Assembly: GCF_044704955.1 (NCBI RefSeq)
Contig: NC_091984.1
Coordinates: 177,940,001 to 178,004,000 of the forward strand
DNA from: Pristiophorus japonicus
Taxonomy: Eukaryota
Direction of reading: 5' to 3'
Length of the DNA: 64,000 bases
In this document: positions 30,594 through 39,959 of the stretch, in pieces
Numbering within the stretch: the stretch's first letter is position 1
Layout of the letters: every line of letters begins with the position of its first letter
Notes under the pieces: model-generated
Database searches by the model: none
Seen by the model: only the letters and a program-made list of their open reading frames with translations
Told to the model about the DNA's origin: nothing
Translations under genes and position numbers: made by a program

Positions 30594-31118
30594 TACACCA
30601 AAGAGGGAAATGTGTTAGCGAGTGTTGTGTAACAGGCTTGGCTGATATGGCAGTTGAAGTGGGACATGTTAGAAGCCCGCCGTAGTAATATAGAGTTGCA
30701 GTGTGGGAAATGTGTTCAGAAAGTACGTTAAGATGCATTTGCCCAGCAACAATTAGCTGGACCAATCAGATGGTAGGCCACCCGCAAGAGGATGTGGTGG
30801 CAAGCTTAGCAAAGATAGACATAGCTGACCTGTGATTAGGCCAGGTGTTGAATAACAGGAAACCTTGCTTGATGCTTCATAGCTGAAAAATGTAAAGTCC
30901 CCAGTGTAATGAAACAGGTGACATACACGGATTGCGTTTTTCAGCTTTAAGTACTGTAAGCTGATAGCCAAAAGCAGAGACAGCACTCACAAGTTGCGGG
31001 AACTTTATGCAAACTGCCATGCTCCCTTGGCCATGCTATAGGTATTCACAAATAAACATTATCTTTGATTCTTTATCAGACTTGTGTGTTGAGCCTTATT
31101 TTGAGTCCACATCAAATT

Positions 31119-31136
31119 TGGCGACGAGGGTGGGAT
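31119..31136 (+). promoter_or_regulatory. Primer binding site, tRNA-Ser(GCT)
   Basis: TGGCGACGAGGGTGGGAT, complement of vertebrate tRNA-Ser(GCT) 3' end (..ATCCCACCCTCGTCGCCA), 4 nt after the 5' LTR. Confidence 0.85.
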
Positions 31137-32309
31137 ACTGTGGGAGATGGACAGACAACCGTGGGCAGAACATGTCAGTCATGAGTAAGTTTAAAGTACC
31201 ATTCCAAAATGACATGATCTCGGTGACAAGACTGTCTGTCAACCGGGTATTCCAAACTTTGAAAGTCTGCTAAAGAACAAATTTGTTGACGCGTGAGTAT
31301 AATAAGTTAGTTTAAAGTCACTGATTTAGTTTAAAGTCATTGATAAGAACTGTGTTGTTGCAAGAAGTATATCAGAGAAATAAGACTAAGATTTAACATA
31401 GAGCTTGGATTAAAGTACCGATTGGAGAGACATGAAGTCATCGGACAGATGATGTAGACCGTCAGACCATATAATGGCAACAGTTATAGAACTAGATTGG
31501 GGTCCAGACAGGTCCCTAACTAGGTTCTATGCTGATGACTAGAAGGGGTTAATTCACAAAATGTTAAAGAATGGGTGGAACCCATCACAAGAACCAGCCG
31601 AACAAAAATGCTTGTTGGCAAAAAGAGAAAACTAAGAGAAGCAAGAAAACTGGTGTAATTATAGTATGACAGCTTTTAAAATGGATAATTGGTATATGTT
31701 GCATGTATCAGTCTCACTCATGAGGAGTAAGTAAGGGACATACCACTGACAACATATAATCATGGGAAGTGAGAAATTCGAGTTGGGACCAGAGGTGTCT
31801 CTGACACGGTACCTAGTAGATTAAAAAAAATAATGATTAAACAAAATTGAAGACTAGATGACTAATCTGTGGCACAAAAGAAGTGGTAGGAGTCGGAAAA
31901 GAAACAAAGAGGAGAAAGCCATCGTTTTAGTGACTCGTGCATATTGTGAATAATGGATAGTTATGACTCAATGAAAAGGAGAAAAGGGAAGATTATGTTT
32001 TTCTTTAAGTGTAAAAGCAGAGAGGTTAAACTGGAAAGGTTGCAAACTGTGCAATGAAAGTTGACATTGATTGATGGTGTCTGTGTTTGTCGGCTTTCGA
32101 AACTAAGGAAGTTAACTCTTTCAAAGGCAGCTGTGAACACTGTTTTAATTCAATGGGTGATACCTTTTGAATGCTGGAAATTTTCTTAATTTGAAGACAA
32201 TATTTGTTCCTGGGGTAGAAGGAATTTTAGGATCAGTTTCTCTAGGCAAGTGACTGAAAGTCAGCGGCCCTCGCTCAGAGCGAAGGCGATCCTCGGATCC
32301 ACATTACAG

Positions 32310-35300
32310 CATTGTTATGGGGCCGGCAATGTGACATGTTAGTGGATACAGGTGCCTCTGTCTCAATGACAGATATCCCCCTACCCACAACCAAACGGAC
32401 AGTTTTAATTGCAGGGGTTGGAGGATCTGCCACAAGAGCACACCTAAGCAAAGTAATATTATTGGACGTGGCAGGGATTCTATGCCCTGCACAATTTTAC
32501 GTTTGTCCAAATAATGAGGGTACAATATTAGGAATCGACCTCCTAGAACAATTAGGAGCGTTGATCGATCCCCACGAGAAGAAAATAGTTTGGAGAAGTC
32601 TAAATGGGAGCAAAACTACTACCTGCGGGGAACAAAATAAACTGGACAACCATGCTAGGGTGGGGAGCGTACAACTCCTCACCAGGGATTGGATACATTA
32701 AAAGAGTGTCTGAAGATTGACCAATCAAACCTGAAGCAAGGAGGCAGTCAACAAATTGTACAAGATCTGCTCGACAGTGGCATACTCTGGGAAGCTGACA
32801 CCACCACTAATTCACCCGTGTGGCCGGTAAAGAAGCTGGATGGCTCGTACATGATGACTATAGATTACATGACACCTCATCAGCACCCCCATTGTAGCCA
32901 GCCCAGCCACAATCTTTAACGGATTGAAACCCGAACATAAGATAATCACAATGCTTGACATAGCCAATGGATTTTGGTCCATACCTCTGGCTCGGGAATC
33001 ACAGGACAAGTTTGCCTTTACTGTAGGGGACCGCTAGTATACGTAGACACGGGTGCCACAGGGATTCCACAACATTTCACCGGACTATGAGTCGAGCCCT
33101 AGAAAAGGTGGACCTAACCCCTTACAGAAGCACAGCCGTCCAGTATGTGGATGATCTGCTGATTGCCTCGGATGATGAACGGGGACACACGGGTGCTCTC
33201 ATAGAAATCTTAGAAATCCTACAAAGGGTGGGATTCAAAGTCAATCCCAAGAAAGCCCAGATCGGACAGACAGTGTACAATATTTGGGACATGAGATATG
33301 ACAAGGGACTAGAACAATGTCTCAAGATAGGAAAGAAGCTATCAATATTAACCAATAAGGGAATTAAGGGTTATTTTAACCAATAAGGGAATTAAGGGTT
33401 ACGGGGAGCGGGCGGGTAAGTGGAGCTGAGTTCACGGCCAGCTCAACCATGATCTTGTTGAATGGCGGAGCAGGCTCGAGGGGCTAGATGGCCTACTCCA
33501 GTTCCTAATTCTTATGTTCTTATGAAGAATCATGCCCTGCCCAAAGACAGACCGAGTGGTATGTAAAGTACTGGGACTCTTTAATTACTGCAGAAACCTT
33601 ATAGCCAACTTCGCAGCAATTGCAGAACCAATACAGAAACTGGTGAAAGGGGGAAACACTCCCTAGAAAGTGTAGAGTGGGGCCCAGAGCAGGAAACAGC
33701 ATATGGTAATCTGAAGGAAGCCTTAATATCTGCACCCGGCCTGTGACTCCCAAACATGGACATACCTTTCCTCATTTACTGCGAAAATGAGGAAGGATTC
33801 GATGGGGCAGTGATTACTCAGATGCATGGGACAGGATGCCACCTGTAGCTTATTACTCAATCCAACAGTCACCCGTGGCGGTCGGTCTGTCCCGGTGTTT
33901 GGCGGCTCTGGACTGTGCAATGTGAGCAGTGAAAGTCAGTGAACCGGCAGTGATGACGTGGGAAATTGTACTGCACACAAACACACTCTGGTAGAAATGC
34001 TCAACACTGGGAAACTAAGATCCATGCCCAATATAAGCAGGGCTAAAAGGGAGGCAGTTTTACTCCCCCATGATGAGTCCATGAAAATAGTACGAGACAC
34101 AGCAGAGAACCCTGCAGAGGGTCTCGTGGCCACAGGTGAACCCTATGAGTGCCAAGTCCGAGAGTGGGAAGACTCACCCGGAAATATGTGAGATCCCACT
34201 CAAGGATCCAGATTTAAACCTTTATGTGGACGAGTCCCCGAAATATATCCAAGGGACCCCACATACAGGGTGGAGCACTTGACACCTAAGTGGGGGACTG
34301 GATGGAGGATTTTGTGCACAAGTGGCAGAAATCACTGCACTGACAGAAGCCCTCCAATTAGCTGAAGGCAAACAGGTAAATATCTATACAGACAGCCGCT
34401 ATGTTTTTGGAGTAGTCCATGACTACATAACAGCCTGTGGGAGGCGGGGGTTTGTCACCTCAGGCGGGCAGGCCATCAAACATGAAGGCCGAATTAGGTT
34501 GCAATTAAACACGGCTAGTAAACCCGCCAAGGCAGTGGTAATAAAGGTCAAAACCCACAAGAAAATGGTAGACAATATCCAGAGAGGCAATGAGGTTTCA
34601 GATAAGGCAGCGCAGGAGGCAGCAGTTTCATCCGAAGCGAGGGAGGAATCTGTAAGTAGTATGATTACTAAAGAAGATATTGACATTGTAAAATTACATG
34701 CAGACATAAATGATGAAGAAAAGACAGAATGGAAAAGACAGGGAGGGGCACCGGATCCAGACTCGGTGTGGAGAAAGGATGGTAAGATGGCAGCCCCAAC
34801 TTGTATAAGAAAAATGCTCAGGGAACTGCACCATGGCATTAACCATGCCGGGAGAAATGCTATGATCAGTAGTGTCTCTAGAAATTGGTGGTGGCCAGGC
34901 ATGGGACGAGACATTGCTAAATATTGCCACCATGTGCCCAACATAATCTGGGAAGGGCCATTAAAATTAGAATGGACCATCAACAATGGCCGCGAGGGTC
35001 ATGGGAGAATATACAAATTGATTGATTTCATGGGACCACTGCCAAGCTCTAGAAGAAAGAAATGCTGTCTAGTAATAATTGATTTGTTTACACGATGTGT
35101 GGAAGCTTTTGCTACCCGAAACTGTACTGCAACCACAGTAGCTCGTATCTTAGCCGAGGAAGTGATTCCCCCGCTGCGGCATTCCCACCCAAGTTGATTC
35201 TGATCAGGGAAACCACTTTACAGGACAGGTGGTAAAATTACTATGTAAAAATTCACACCACCTACCACCCGTAGAGTTTGGGCATGGTAGAATGGATGAA

Positions 35301-35755
35301 TCGGACAAAAAAGACAGCTGTGTCAAAAGCCATCCAAGAAACCGGATAGGCTTGGGCTAAGCTGCTGCCTGCTATCCTGATGAGGCAAAGGGCAACTCCT
35401 AACCGAACAACAGGAGTAACTCCATATGAACTCATGACTGGTCGGGCAATGTGATTACCCGAAGGTATAATCACAGGATCGTCTGATGTGGGCCCATTGC
35501 GGAATCAGATTAGGAGATATGTAATGGAGTTAAGTAAGCAGGTCGGAATGAAGAAGAAGGGTTATAGTCCCCGGTAGATCTTCCCTAAGTTGGAGAGAAA
35601 GTAATGGTTAAGGGGCTACCTGGACGAACTGGAATCATGCCGCGCTGGTCAGGACTATACAAGATACTGATCAGTGGTGATATGTGTGCCTGTATGAAGA
35701 TGAATGCAGTAGAACAGTGGAAACATTGGTCCCAGTTGAAAAGCTACACTGACAT
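32310..35755 (+). pseudogene. pol: Retroviral pro-pol (protease, RT, tether, RNase H, integrase), frameshifted
   Basis: LVDTGAS and ILGIDLL protease; SPVWPVKK, LDIANGFWSIPL, VPQGFHN, QYVDDLLIAS RT; AEITAL, NIYTDSRY RNase H; HHGINH..WWWPG..C, IDFMGPLP, DSDQG, YHP*SLGMVE integrase. Confidence 0.93.
33348..33524 (+). mobile_element. Short CR1 3' tail inserted in ERV pol
   Basis: Matches reverse of 9155-9305; ends ttcttatgttcttatg. Confidence 0.8.
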
Positions 35756-35794
35756 GTAGTGGATAGCCCAAGTGCGTCCACCCCTTTTTACAGG

Positions 35795-38700
35795 ATGGCC
35801 TGGTGGATAATCATTCTGATACTGTTATGGATGATCCAGACAATGGATCAACACCACGATGAAGACCCAAGGGATCCCGAATGCAGACGAATAATTGTGG
35901 GGGATGGAATCCACATATCGTGGATCTTTCAGTCTGAAGGAGGTCTGGTGGGCTTGGGCCTGCCACCGAATGGCACGATCCGAAGATGCAAGGTGGTCCA
36001 ACCGAAAATGTTAGGAATCTCTGTGGTGTCCCACCGAATGGCATGTATATCCTGCAACCTTGCTAGTGTCTCTATATGGACACTCCTTAGCGATCGTAAC
36101 TATTATCGCAACCATTATTATGACCATAAGGAATTTAAGGAATCTTACATAGATTCACATGTTAGAAATCATAAGTCTAATATCGTTACAGTATGTGTCA
36201 TGGCAGAACGAACATTCCGGCCCAGGTATTCCAATAACACGGGTGAGATGGGCAGGCGAGTGGCCACTAACGACGGCACTGCCCACCTCACCGACGCCAC
36301 CAAAACCGTTAGAATGTCCCATAAATACCGTAGGATCCCCAAGTGGGGTGGTCCTGAGAACAGAGGGAATCCAATTGTATGAAAATGTATACCATGCATA
36401 ATAGTAAACCTGATGGACATGCGGCTACCAGAAAAATGTGGCTTTAAAGGTATGGGCATTGTACACCCGAAAGCTTAAGATAGTGTTGAAAGAATCGCGG
36501 GACATCGAAACATAGAAAATAGGTGCAGGAGCAGGCCATTTGGCCCTTCAAGCCTGCACCACCATTGAATATGATCATGGCTGATCATACAACTTCAGTA
36601 CCCCACTCCTGCCTTCTCTCCATACACCCGATCCCTTTAGCCATTAGGGCCACATCTAACTCCCTTTTGAATATATCCAACGAACTGCACTCAACAACTT
36701 TCTGTGGTTGAGAATTCCATAGGTTCACAATTCTCTGGGTGAAAAAGTTTCTCCTCATCTCGGTCCTATATGGCTTACCCCTTATCCTTAGACTTTGTTC
36801 CTTGGTTCTGGACTTCCCCAACATCGGGAACATTCTTCCTGCATCTTACCTGTCCAATCCCATCAGACTTTTATATGCTTCTCTGAGATCCCCTCTCATT
36901 CTTCTAAATTCCAGTGAATATAAGCATAGTGGATCCAGTCTTTCTTCATATTTCAGTCCTGCCATCCCGGGAATCAGTCTGGTGAATCTTCGTTGCACTC
37001 CCTCAATAGCAAGAATGTCCTTCCTCAGATTAGGAGACCAAAATTGCACACAATACTCAAGGTGTGGTCTCACCAAGGCCCTGTTCAACTGCACCAAGAT
37101 CTCCCTGCTCCTATAAAATCCTCTTGCTATGAAGACAAACATGCCATTTGCATTCTTAACTGCCTGCTGTACCTGCATGCCTACTTTCAATGACTGATGT
37201 ACCATGACACCCAGGTCTCGTTGCACCTCCCCTTTTACTAATCTCTCACCATTCAGATAATAATCCGCCTTACTGTTTTTGCCACCAAAGTGGATAACCT
37301 CACACTTATCCACATTATACTGCATCTGCCATGCATTTGCCCACACACCTAACTTGTCCAAGTCCTTAGCATCCTCCTCACAACTCACACTGCCACCCAG
37401 CTTAATGTCATCTGCAAACTTGGAGATATTACATTCAATTCCTTCGTCTAAATCATTAATATATATTGTAAATAGCTTGGGTCCCAGCACTGAACCTTGC
37501 AGCACCCCACTAGTCACTGCCTGACATTCTGAAAAGGACCCATTTATTCCTACTCTTTGCTTCCTTTCTGCCAACCAGTTCTCTCTCCACGTCAATACAT
37601 TACCGCTCATCCAATGTGCCTTAATGTTGCACACCGATCTCTTGTGTGGGACCTTGTCAAAAGCCTTTTGAAAGTCCAAATACATCACATCCACTGATTC
37701 TTCCTTATCCTCTCTACTAGAATGTTTTGATGATGTAACTAGAAGATTTGTCAAACATGATTTCCCTTTCATAAATCCATGCTGACTTGGACCGACTGCT
37801 TTCCAAATGTGGGATGCCTCAGGGGCATCCAGATAATGGAGCCTTCTGAAAGTGGGTCAGACCCACAGACAGAAACGGGGTCTGATCAATGACGTCTTAA
37901 CAGGGGTCAACACGGGAACCTCATTTATAAATGCCCTAGACATACAAGCTATACAGAAACACTCGGAAAGCCTTAAAGACACAGTCAGGAAGTTGCTGCA
38001 GAGGCAGACAGATGCAGCCAAAGGGGCTGCTTGGGAAGGCAATGGGGCAGCAGGGAGCTTAGTCAAACAGATTATCATCCTGGAGGGTCATGCTGCCACC
38101 ATTAACCGCCTAATTGACTGAGAATTCAATGCAGAAAAGGCAGAGTTTCAACGAGACTTCTGCCACACTTACAGGGGATGGGTGATTGGGCAGGTCATGG
38201 AGAACCTAGACCAAATACAAATGGGAGAAGTCTCGGATTGGATAAACAGCACCCACCTGTTCCGCCTAGCACAGCACCCAGGATCACTGGATGTGTGCAC
38301 CATGAAAGGAATGACAAGAGTCTTTCCGGTGACAGGCGGATGCACAGATTCACATTCTGCCCTGGTGGGCATGGTCCCAATGATTCCAGTAATGGCGAAG
38401 GGGGAGTCTAGATCTCACTCCCAGTTTGAGGTAGAAATCTTGGGCTAATCCTGGGTGAGAACTATATGTGGTACTACCCAACATGCGATCAAAGAGAATG
38501 GAACAATGAGAGGGGTCTCATTATCAGGGTGGCGCAGAGTAAGAAGCCTAATTATATGTCCACATCCAGTAGGCTGGGGAAGCGAGGATGGATGCGGATT
38601 TACTCAAACCATTGGGTGCGTCTTAGAAATAAGCCCATTAGAATCCAAATAAACCCACTCAGCCTACCACAGAAAGGAGGAATACTGTTTGGCAACCAAC

Positions 38701-39140
38701 CAACCAACTTACGACTATGATATTTATCAATGTACTATCACAAACCCCAACTTTTGCTTCACCCCGAGGCTACTGGTCACAATCGGATGAGCACGAATAA
38801 TGTATATTCATGCTCGAGAAACTATTACCCTGAACCTGACTGATGAAATTTAAAAGATTTGTATCAATATGATAGTGAACTGGCTGCACCAATACCCCAC
38901 CTGCCCGAGGAAGTGAGAGACATAAAGTATCTTCTGCTGGCAAGCATAAAATGGTATCATGTGCTCAAATAGGAGCTGCACGAACTGAGCAAGGACATTG
39001 CAAAAGACCTTTAACGTACCCCATGGTACGAGAAGGCATGGAACTGGCGACTGAACGTTAAAATCCATCCATAGATACATATCATTTCTCACATATTGGC
39101 GATGGTTCAACTGATTTTGGCACTGTGCTGGCTGATAATG
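35795..39140 (+). pseudogene. env: Retroviral env (signal peptide, SU split by CR1, furin site RQKR 37867-37878, long fusion subunit, TM anchor)
   Basis: MAWWIIILILLWMI signal; RQKR/GLINDVLTGVNTGTSFINALDI fusion peptide plus heptad region; Cys-rich ectodomain; PWYEKAWNW then hydrophobic IIS HILAMVQLILALC near 39020-39130. Confidence 0.8.
36505..37810 (-). mobile_element. CR1 LINE inserted in env
   Basis: ORF 36846-37772 (308 aa RT, FADD); ACATAGAA tail; similar to 20468-21805. Confidence 0.92.
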
Positions 39141-39959
39141 ACATGTGCAGCTTGTAGGAAGTGTAGACATAGACAGCAAGCTAACGCAATCACTCGTATG
39201 CAAGAGAAAGATAGACTGTTGATGGATGGGGGAATTTAAACTCCAGTTAAGCGATAGATCTCCCAAACTTGGTGGCAGATTACTGCAAGTGGGGCAGGAA
39301 GTCTAAAGCATTAGATCGTTTAGCTCTAGTGGTATCATGGGCTGGGGTTAGCCAGGGACCAAAGGGGGGGATTGGAGTGGAAGTTGTTAGAAGCCCACCA
39401 TAGTAATATAGAGTTGCAGTCTGGGAAATGTGTTCAGAAAGTATTTCAAGCTGCATTTTCTCAGCAACAATTAGCTGGACCAATCAGATGGTAGGCCACC
39501 TGCAAGACGATGTGGTGGCAAACTTAGCAAAGATAGACATAGCTGACCTGTGGTTACATCATGTGTTGAATAACGGGAAACCTGGCTTGTTGCTTCATAG
39601 CTGAAAAATGTCCCCAGTGTAATGGAACAGGTGATGTACACGGATTGCGGTTTTCGGCTTTAAGTACTGTGAGCTGATAGCCAAAAGCCGAGATGGCACT
39701 TATGAGTTGCAGGAACTCTACGAAAACTGCCATGCTCCCTTATCCAAGCATTAGGTATTCGCAAATAAACATTATTTTTGATTCTTTATCAGACTTGTGT
39801 GTTGAGCCTTATTTTGGTTCCACATCAGCAGTCATGATTCAACAGTTGCCAGTGTGTGCGAGCTGTGTGGTGCTGGTGTGATGGTCAGGAAAAGCATATG
39901 ATTGGTAGGGTTACGTCCTGATTGATAGAGATTCCTGCGAGATAGGTAGTGAGGATGTA

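Follow-up and report, generated by a model that had tools for sequence, protein, structure and literature searches.

What kind of retrovirus left the provirus that spans 30655..39827 of a 64,000-nt stretch of the shark Pristiophorus japonicus (contig NC_091984.1, positions 177,940,001 to 178,004,000; hereafter the window), and by what sort of envelope protein (Env) did its relatives enter cells? A first-pass annotation, made from the DNA alone, had proposed a complete endogenous retrovirus (ERV) of a deep-branching lineage of cartilaginous fish, with a lokiretrovirus- or spuma-like Env. We find that the element is a broken, long-inserted, gag-deleted copy of a multi-copy ERV family. Very probably, this family belongs to a deep lineage near snakehead retrovirus (SnRV) and the stem of the gamma- and epsilonretroviruses, and its Env is predicted to resemble the fusion protein (F) of paramyxo- and pneumoviruses and to carry a swappable, likely receptor-binding head.

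The structural argument comes from P0037, a natural open env frame of a sister family that is 47% identical to P0003, the window family's own env piece. We folded it with AlphaFold and a 32-row alignment, and obtained a model with a mean predicted local distance difference test (pLDDT) of 63.5, in which blocks mostly reach 70-96 over residues 331-560 and much of the head stays below 50. Its best Foldseek matches in the PDB are the postfusion F of respiratory syncytial virus (RSV; E 7.5e-11) and the F of human parainfluenza virus 3 (1.2e-10). When the model was compared with 48,161 chains by VIA-align, rows 1-14 were all F or foamy Env (Z 11.9 to 7.2), helical bundles scored at most 6.5, and RSV F aligned with Z 11.9 and a root-mean-square deviation of 6.0 over 280 residues. 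The BFVD matches include the Env of walleye epidermal hyperplasia virus 1 (WEHV-1; second, 5.6e-13), walleye dermal sarcoma virus (WDSV; 23rd, 7.8e-9) and feline foamy virus (42nd, 1.6e-5). For P0003, ESM features indicate Baculo_F and Fusion_gly (0.91-0.93), which is weak by the tool's own recognition value. The match to F begins at residue 167 of P0037, upstream of the furin site, which suggests that an F2-like segment precedes the cleavage and that the first 150 or so residues form an extra head. The likeness to Mononegavirales F proteins that the first-pass annotation had raised for the post-furin peptide is therefore borne out on the sister-family model, and we predict that the family Env folds like the F of RSV and measles-type viruses. 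Its motif and predicted fold suggest a class I fusogen, i.e., a furin-cleaved trimer that would drive membrane fusion.

Such an Env is not a peculiarity of sharks. The fusion subunit is indeed long, but the initial figure of about 420 aa has to be split into about 400 aa from the furin site to the start of the anchor and about 455 aa for the whole subunit. The accompanying claim that ectodomains of the gamma/epsilon type are much shorter fails for WDSV, a true epsilonretrovirus: the distance from furin site to anchor is 400-408 aa in the shark group, 401 in Loki, about 390 in foamy viruses, about 385 in WDSV and 355 in SnRV, the cleavage sites of the last two being picked among several basic motifs by their position in the profile match. 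Hence, a roughly 400-residue fusion ectodomain is not peculiar to the window family. A profile built from the 32-row shark alignment, which contains none of the reference Env, gave 44.4 bits (43.1 in another run) to Loki Env, 20.4 to WDSV, 5.8-14.8 to ten foamy viruses and 11.0 to SnRV, the latter match being collinear over profile positions 89-405. All 13 reference Env outscored the 273 controls (260 shuffled and 13 reversed), of which the best reached 2.1 bits; the Env of WDSV (L096) and SnRV (L074) each lie above every shuffled control. Most deep-branching retroviruses of fish probably have an Env of this type. F-likeness has been published for Loki Env (PMC7947760) and for foamy Env (PMC11468914). 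The Env of epsilonretroviruses has been described merely as neither gamma- nor beta-type (10.1101/2021.11.23.469661, in the part cited here), the section of Viro3D on class I fusogens mentions neither epsilonretroviruses nor SnRV (PMC12583693), and a 2026 survey of shark Env treats, in the portion available, gamma-type, syncytin-like genes only (10.64898/2026.05.06.723177). Our literature search, which did not cover Calcraft et al. 2024 and bioRxiv supplements that may bear on the matter, found no statement of an F-like Env in SnRV, epsilonretroviruses or shark ERVs.

The prominence of Loki Env among the named viruses raises the possibility of a recombinant, in which a gag-pol of SnRV or class I type captured a Loki-type env and the F-like Env is a graft. 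The drop from 44 bits for Loki to 20 for WDSV and 11 for SnRV, the RNase H and reverse transcriptase (RT) that point away from Loki, the frequent exchange of env among fish and amphibian retroviruses (10.1101/2021.11.23.469661) and the swapping of env parts within the window family itself would all fit this scenario. However, bit scores vary with rate and inserted domains, and a graft becomes unnecessary because the Env of SnRV, WDSV, WEHV-1 and foamy viruses are all of the same type. We regard it as unlikely, though the most serious of the alternatives weighed here.

The placement of the family by its polymerase gene relied on open frames from two same-family copies and one sister copy, because the RT of the window is broken. 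Viral and metagenome contigs supplied the reference sequences (SnRV, WDSV, two WEHV-like viruses, 4 of 15 foamy viruses, 4 of 13 alpha/betaretroviruses and two Loki), which were labelled by their match to the alignment of Wang and Han and by length; with 26 of 120 listed RT homologs kept to span the diversity, the RT tree has 43 rows. The two Loki rows are near-complete elements in metagenome contigs (L064 and L067). In this tree, branches of 100/100 each set the family apart from Loki and from the four mammalian foamy RTs, and one of 100/98 from the clade that unites epsilon-, gamma- and alpha/betaretroviruses; its companions (97/90) are one RT each of Heterodontus and a minnow, and a number of further RTs. 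Removing the alpha/beta rows left the placement outside crown gamma+epsilon unchanged, with the family and its companions at 92/90, and the approximately unbiased (AU) test rejected joining the family to epsilonretroviruses (p-AU 0.0016). The best named RT match is SnRV, at 44% identity. In the RNase H tree, computed under a plain LG model and with a long-branch warning for the union of Loki with foamy viruses, the family joins SnRV, epsilon- and gammaretroviruses (100/99), away from Loki and foamy viruses; Wang and Han (PMC7947760) call the former group III and the latter group I. The sequences thus suggest that the family RT is part of a loosely ordered deep grade, outside crown gamma+epsilon and near SnRV and the gamma/epsilon stem. 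The proposed depth of the lineage stands; its restriction to cartilaginous fish does not, since a minnow RT falls in the same clade and there are env homologs in frogs. SnRV-related shark ERVs have been described before, among them the lineage I ERVs of the elephant shark (Han 2015, PMC4422223). According to PMC4299795, ERVs related to SnRV "remain to be classified", and zinc fingers and a GPY motif occur in some of them. This fits our sister family, with its two CCHC knuckles in Gag and its GPY motif. Three frog and coelacanth Pol proteins (P0059, P0062 and P0079) combine an SnRV-side RT with a Loki-grouped integrase (95/97) and an intermediate RNase H.

These trees bear directly on whether the family could be a lokiretrovirus, or a sister of Loki that extends the group to cartilaginous fish, which the hosts given in the pertinent part of Wang and Han (PMC7947760) do not include. 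The Env profile and the near-identical distance from furin site to anchor speak for it, RT sisterhood with Loki is not rejected (p 0.21), and the integrase scores Loki (194 bits) above epsilonretroviruses and SnRV. Yet a fully supported branch parts the two Loki RTs from the family, the family RT lacks the Loki signature visible in the alignment of Wang and Han, a Loki RT pattern occurs at 0 places in this genome (a weak negative), the RNase H falls outside the group of Loki and foamy viruses, the N-terminal head is absent from Loki Env, and the sister-family integrase falls outside the 95/97 group that holds Loki, in a tree that is poorly resolved and has no CGIN1 row. This reading is accordingly very improbable, and the suggested lokiretrovirus or spuma-like affiliation is not supported: the RT is outside Loki and outside the mammalian foamy viruses, and the RNase H is of the SnRV/epsilon/gamma type. 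We give least credence to placing the family among Gypsy elements that bear an envelope, or among fish foamy-like ERVs, instead of at the SnRV grade. F-type env genes are known in Gypsy errantiviruses and foamy viruses (PMC11468914 for the latter), the Gypsy-like element of L046 resembles the family in its TGGCGACGAG primer site, and RT sisterhood with foamy viruses is not rejected (p 0.25). Against this, the RT scores 227 bits to murine leukaemia virus, 167 to foamy viruses and 112 to Ty3; the elements have a tether, a second RNase H and, in the sister Gag, two CCHC knuckles; and Env starts with an ordinary signal peptide, without the leader membrane helix of foamy Env.

A number of points weigh against the combination of an SnRV-grade lineage and an F-type Env that we favour. 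First, the fold was predicted on the sister family, with a pTM of 0.42 and TM-scores of only 0.3-0.5. Second, the AlphaFold model of the head failed (pLDDT 36.9), and the receptor-binding role of this domain is only predicted. Third, sequence searches of Pfam and the PDB with env returned no F protein: in the env pieces of the window and 11 env relatives Pfam recognised no viral envelope family, TLV_coat included, and the PDB searches with one env frame and with the env profile gave coiled coils only. Fourth, RT sisterhood is not rejected for SnRV (p 0.30) or class I (p 0.22) either. Fifth, the RT tree holds two close Loki only and no ERV-L/S, ERV4, fish foamy-like, Odin or lentivirus RT (class III ERV-L/S are absent because an ERV-L RT pattern had 0 matches in the viral contigs), its sole Gypsy row is a useless long branch, and it joins alpha/beta to gamma, likely an artefact.

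The part of Env that precedes the F-like core varies in an unusual manner. The head could be compared at 12 of 22 loci, those that hold both anchors around it (three loci had been fetched twice), and with the window these heads form two DNA classes that do not align; their proteins share 30-39% identity across about 70-110 residues. The two types are carried by 9 and 7 copies (window; L002-L012, L033-L045). In contrast, the fusion-subunit DNA of the 16 distinct copies is 90.7% identical between head classes and 91.5 and 90.9% within them, and the tree of these copies is nearly a star. Since the fusion core is about equally identical between and within classes, a diverged head must have recombined onto the same core. 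The sister family carries a third head that aligns to neither type. The position and variability of the head suggest that it likely binds the receptor; an Atlas search with the head domain gave no usable match.

How alive is the family? Searches of the genome yielded 474 candidates with env DNA (40 scored; long matches 85-90% identical), 1964 with RT DNA (40 scored) and 19800 with env protein (128 scored), the last of which brought in related families whose identity falls as low as 46%; env is still open in some of them, in frames of 708 and 741 codons. The first-pass annotation had proposed a genome search for intact copies, and one candidate comes from the sister family: in L044, from the same genome, gag, pol and env frames are open and the two long terminal repeats (LTRs) are identical (675/675 nt), so that this is a very recent insertion unless the identity is an artefact of assembly or conversion. 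Another copy, L043, has 97.6% LTR identity and an open env, without gag-pol. The primer sites of both are unlike that of the window. The nearest named relatives of both env and RT are shark proteins; for env they are from Mustelus, Chiloscyllium, Scyliorhinus and Pristiophorus, followed by Pelodytes and Xenopus at about 20% (10 of 30 matches looked up). Full-length F-type env relatives from bamboo shark and the two frogs (P0023, P0031, P0032 and P0035) are 19-22% identical, and a bamboo shark relative is named Ig-like in UniRef; some of these could be domesticated genes. A scan of viral contigs with the family RT gave no match.

The anatomy of the window copy (Table 1) largely agrees with the first description: paired LTRs, the GCAGT duplication, perfect on both flanks (1 chance in 1024 at one fixed place), the RT motifs LDIANGFW and YVDD, the furin site and both CR1 inserts were all recovered. 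Pfam recognises protease, RT, RNase H and integrase in the window; in another copy of the family it also identifies the tether (PF17919) and the second RNase H (PF00075). As noted in the first description, there is no CX6CC motif, which is absent from all 5 full-length env relatives, where the ectodomain measures 400-417 aa. The primer-binding site is directed at a tRNA-Ser as proposed, but matches the host tRNA-Ser(GCT) at 17 of 18 positions, the other being a G-U wobble. The exact tRNA pattern complementary to the site occurs at 0 places in the genome and a relaxed one at 203, of which the first 100 listed are all the wobble variant; tRNA-Ser(GCT) is present at 2 of 5 such loci tested. The CR1 label of the short insert in RT follows from its repeat tail and is presumptive. 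More CR1-like fragments lie immediately to the right of the provirus (39960-40550).

Table 1. Features of the provirus and its flanks, in positions of the window
Feature	Position	Strand	Basis or remark
5' target-site duplication	30650..30654	+	GCAGT
5' LTR	30655..31114	+	460 nt, TG...CA
Primer-binding site	31119..31136	+	Complementary to host tRNA-Ser(GCT) plus CCA
gag remnant	31440..32257	+	Only the N-terminal part remains; no recognisable capsid-nucleocapsid; approximate bounds
Protease	32258..32700	+	Pfam RVP, E 1.7e-7
RT and start of tether	32701..33830	+	Broken; about 107 nt missing near start
Short insert in RT, presumably CR1 3' end	33345..33525	.	Ends about; alignment break against sister copies
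Second RNase H	34200..34630	+	SnRV/epsilon/gamma group; Pfam match, RNase H tree
Integrase	34800..35750	+	Broken; Pfam match
env signal peptide and variable N-terminal head (type A)	35795..36290	+	Likely attachment module
env F2-like segment, first part	36290..36502	+	
CR1-type long interspersed element in env	36503..37809	-	335-aa RT frame; alignment breaks and RT domain on minus strand
Furin site	37867..37878	+	RQKR
F1-like fusion subunit	37879..39240	+	In-frame stops and frameshift; anchor about 39076-39150
Polypurine tract	39361..39371	+	Before 3' LTR
3' LTR	39373..39827	+	455 nt, TG...CA
3' target-site duplication	39828..39832	+	GCAGT

Contrary to the first description, the element is not complete. 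Its capsid-nucleocapsid region is gone, with no match in the window to the 347-aa frame of same-family copy L045; alignment to sister copies reveals the gap at the start of RT; and pol and env carry stops and frameshifts. The LTRs differ at 49 of 455 columns (10.8%; Kimura two-parameter distance 0.117), with 16 differences in the first 180 as counted initially. We call the insertion simply old because its age comes to 27 or 266 million years, depending on which of two rates from Han 2015 (PMC4422223) is applied. The short, capsid-less gag region (window 31137-32257) recurs at 4 of 19 RT-flanking loci (L021, L022, L024 and L030), which is consistent with copying in trans and suggests a non-autonomous subfamily.

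Among known systems, SnRV and SnRV-like ERVs (clade Huo of Xu et al. 2018, PMC6001957; lineage I of Han 2015, PMC4422223) are close ones. They share with our families the RT match, the RNase H group, gag-stop-pol in one frame (seen in L044 and SnRV) and the long F-type fusion subunit. SnRV does not form one clade with the family in the best RT tree, for which the missing ERV-L/S rows and the p-AU of 0.30 have to be kept in mind, its Env has about 1130 aa against 710, and no accessory frames were seen in the family. Loki elements share the F-like Env, an RXKR site, the ectodomain length and the tether with second RNase H, and differ in RT, RNase H, integrase and the lack of the extra head. WDSV and WEHV have an Env of the same structural type and the same RNase H group, but their RT grouping is rejected, the family Env is far shorter, and the 5-bp duplication differs from the 4 bp typical of ERV1 (PMC4299795). 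Foamy Env (Fernandez et al. 2024, PMC11468914) has an F-type core (VIA-align Z 7.2) and a similar ectodomain length, whereas its receptor-binding domain lies inside domain III and it has two membrane helices; the family has a variable module before the core and one anchor. The RNase H of foamy viruses is also of another group, and their Gag is not known to have zinc knuckles, unlike the sister-family Gag. The F of paramyxo- and pneumoviruses shares the predicted fold and the split into F2 and F1 at the furin site, at 7-15% identity; paramyxoviruses use a separate attachment protein, whereas the family Env bears its own variable head. ERV3 and ERV4 (Chong et al. 2014) share the 5-bp target-site duplication (PMC4299795), and lack the Gag zinc finger and GPF/Y motif that have counterparts in the sister family. 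Gamma-type Env differ by their CX6CC motif and short ectodomain. In short, the family Env may work like a Loki or foamy fusogen while the family is probably a member of neither group.

From these comparisons a life cycle can be proposed. Reverse transcription would be primed on tRNA-Ser, Pol would be made by readthrough of the gag stop, and integration would duplicate 5 bp. By analogy with F and foamy Env, furin would prime the Env trimer at RQKR and free the fusion peptide; a long first helix would then extend into the target membrane and a second helix pack back to give a six-helix bundle. The capsid-less variant may have spread with the help of intact relatives, and the insertion in the window would then have decayed and received its two CR1 insertions.

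With hundreds of candidates known, the locus is just a single dead copy, and its value is comparative. The pair of heads on one core illustrates how attachment modules are exchanged in nature, and the sister family provides env frames that are short, open and suited to structural study. Wang and Han (PMC7947760) left open four scenarios for the origin of retroviral Env, since they had noticed no resemblance of Loki Env to the Env of other retroviruses. The family profile bridges Loki, WDSV, foamy and SnRV Env in sequence, which favours the two scenarios with an F-type Env in the common ancestor. We tentatively suggest, at somewhat less than even chances, that the ancestral envelope of retroviruses was an F-type fusion protein, which Loki, foamy and snakehead retroviruses, the walleye epsilonretroviruses and the shark-teleost lineage have kept, and that Env of the gamma and beta types arose later by replacement or reduction. 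If so, the shark-teleost lineage, placed on the stem that leads to gamma+epsilon and with a sister family that inserted very recently in this genome, would show the minimal design of this envelope: an F core and a small, swappable attachment head.

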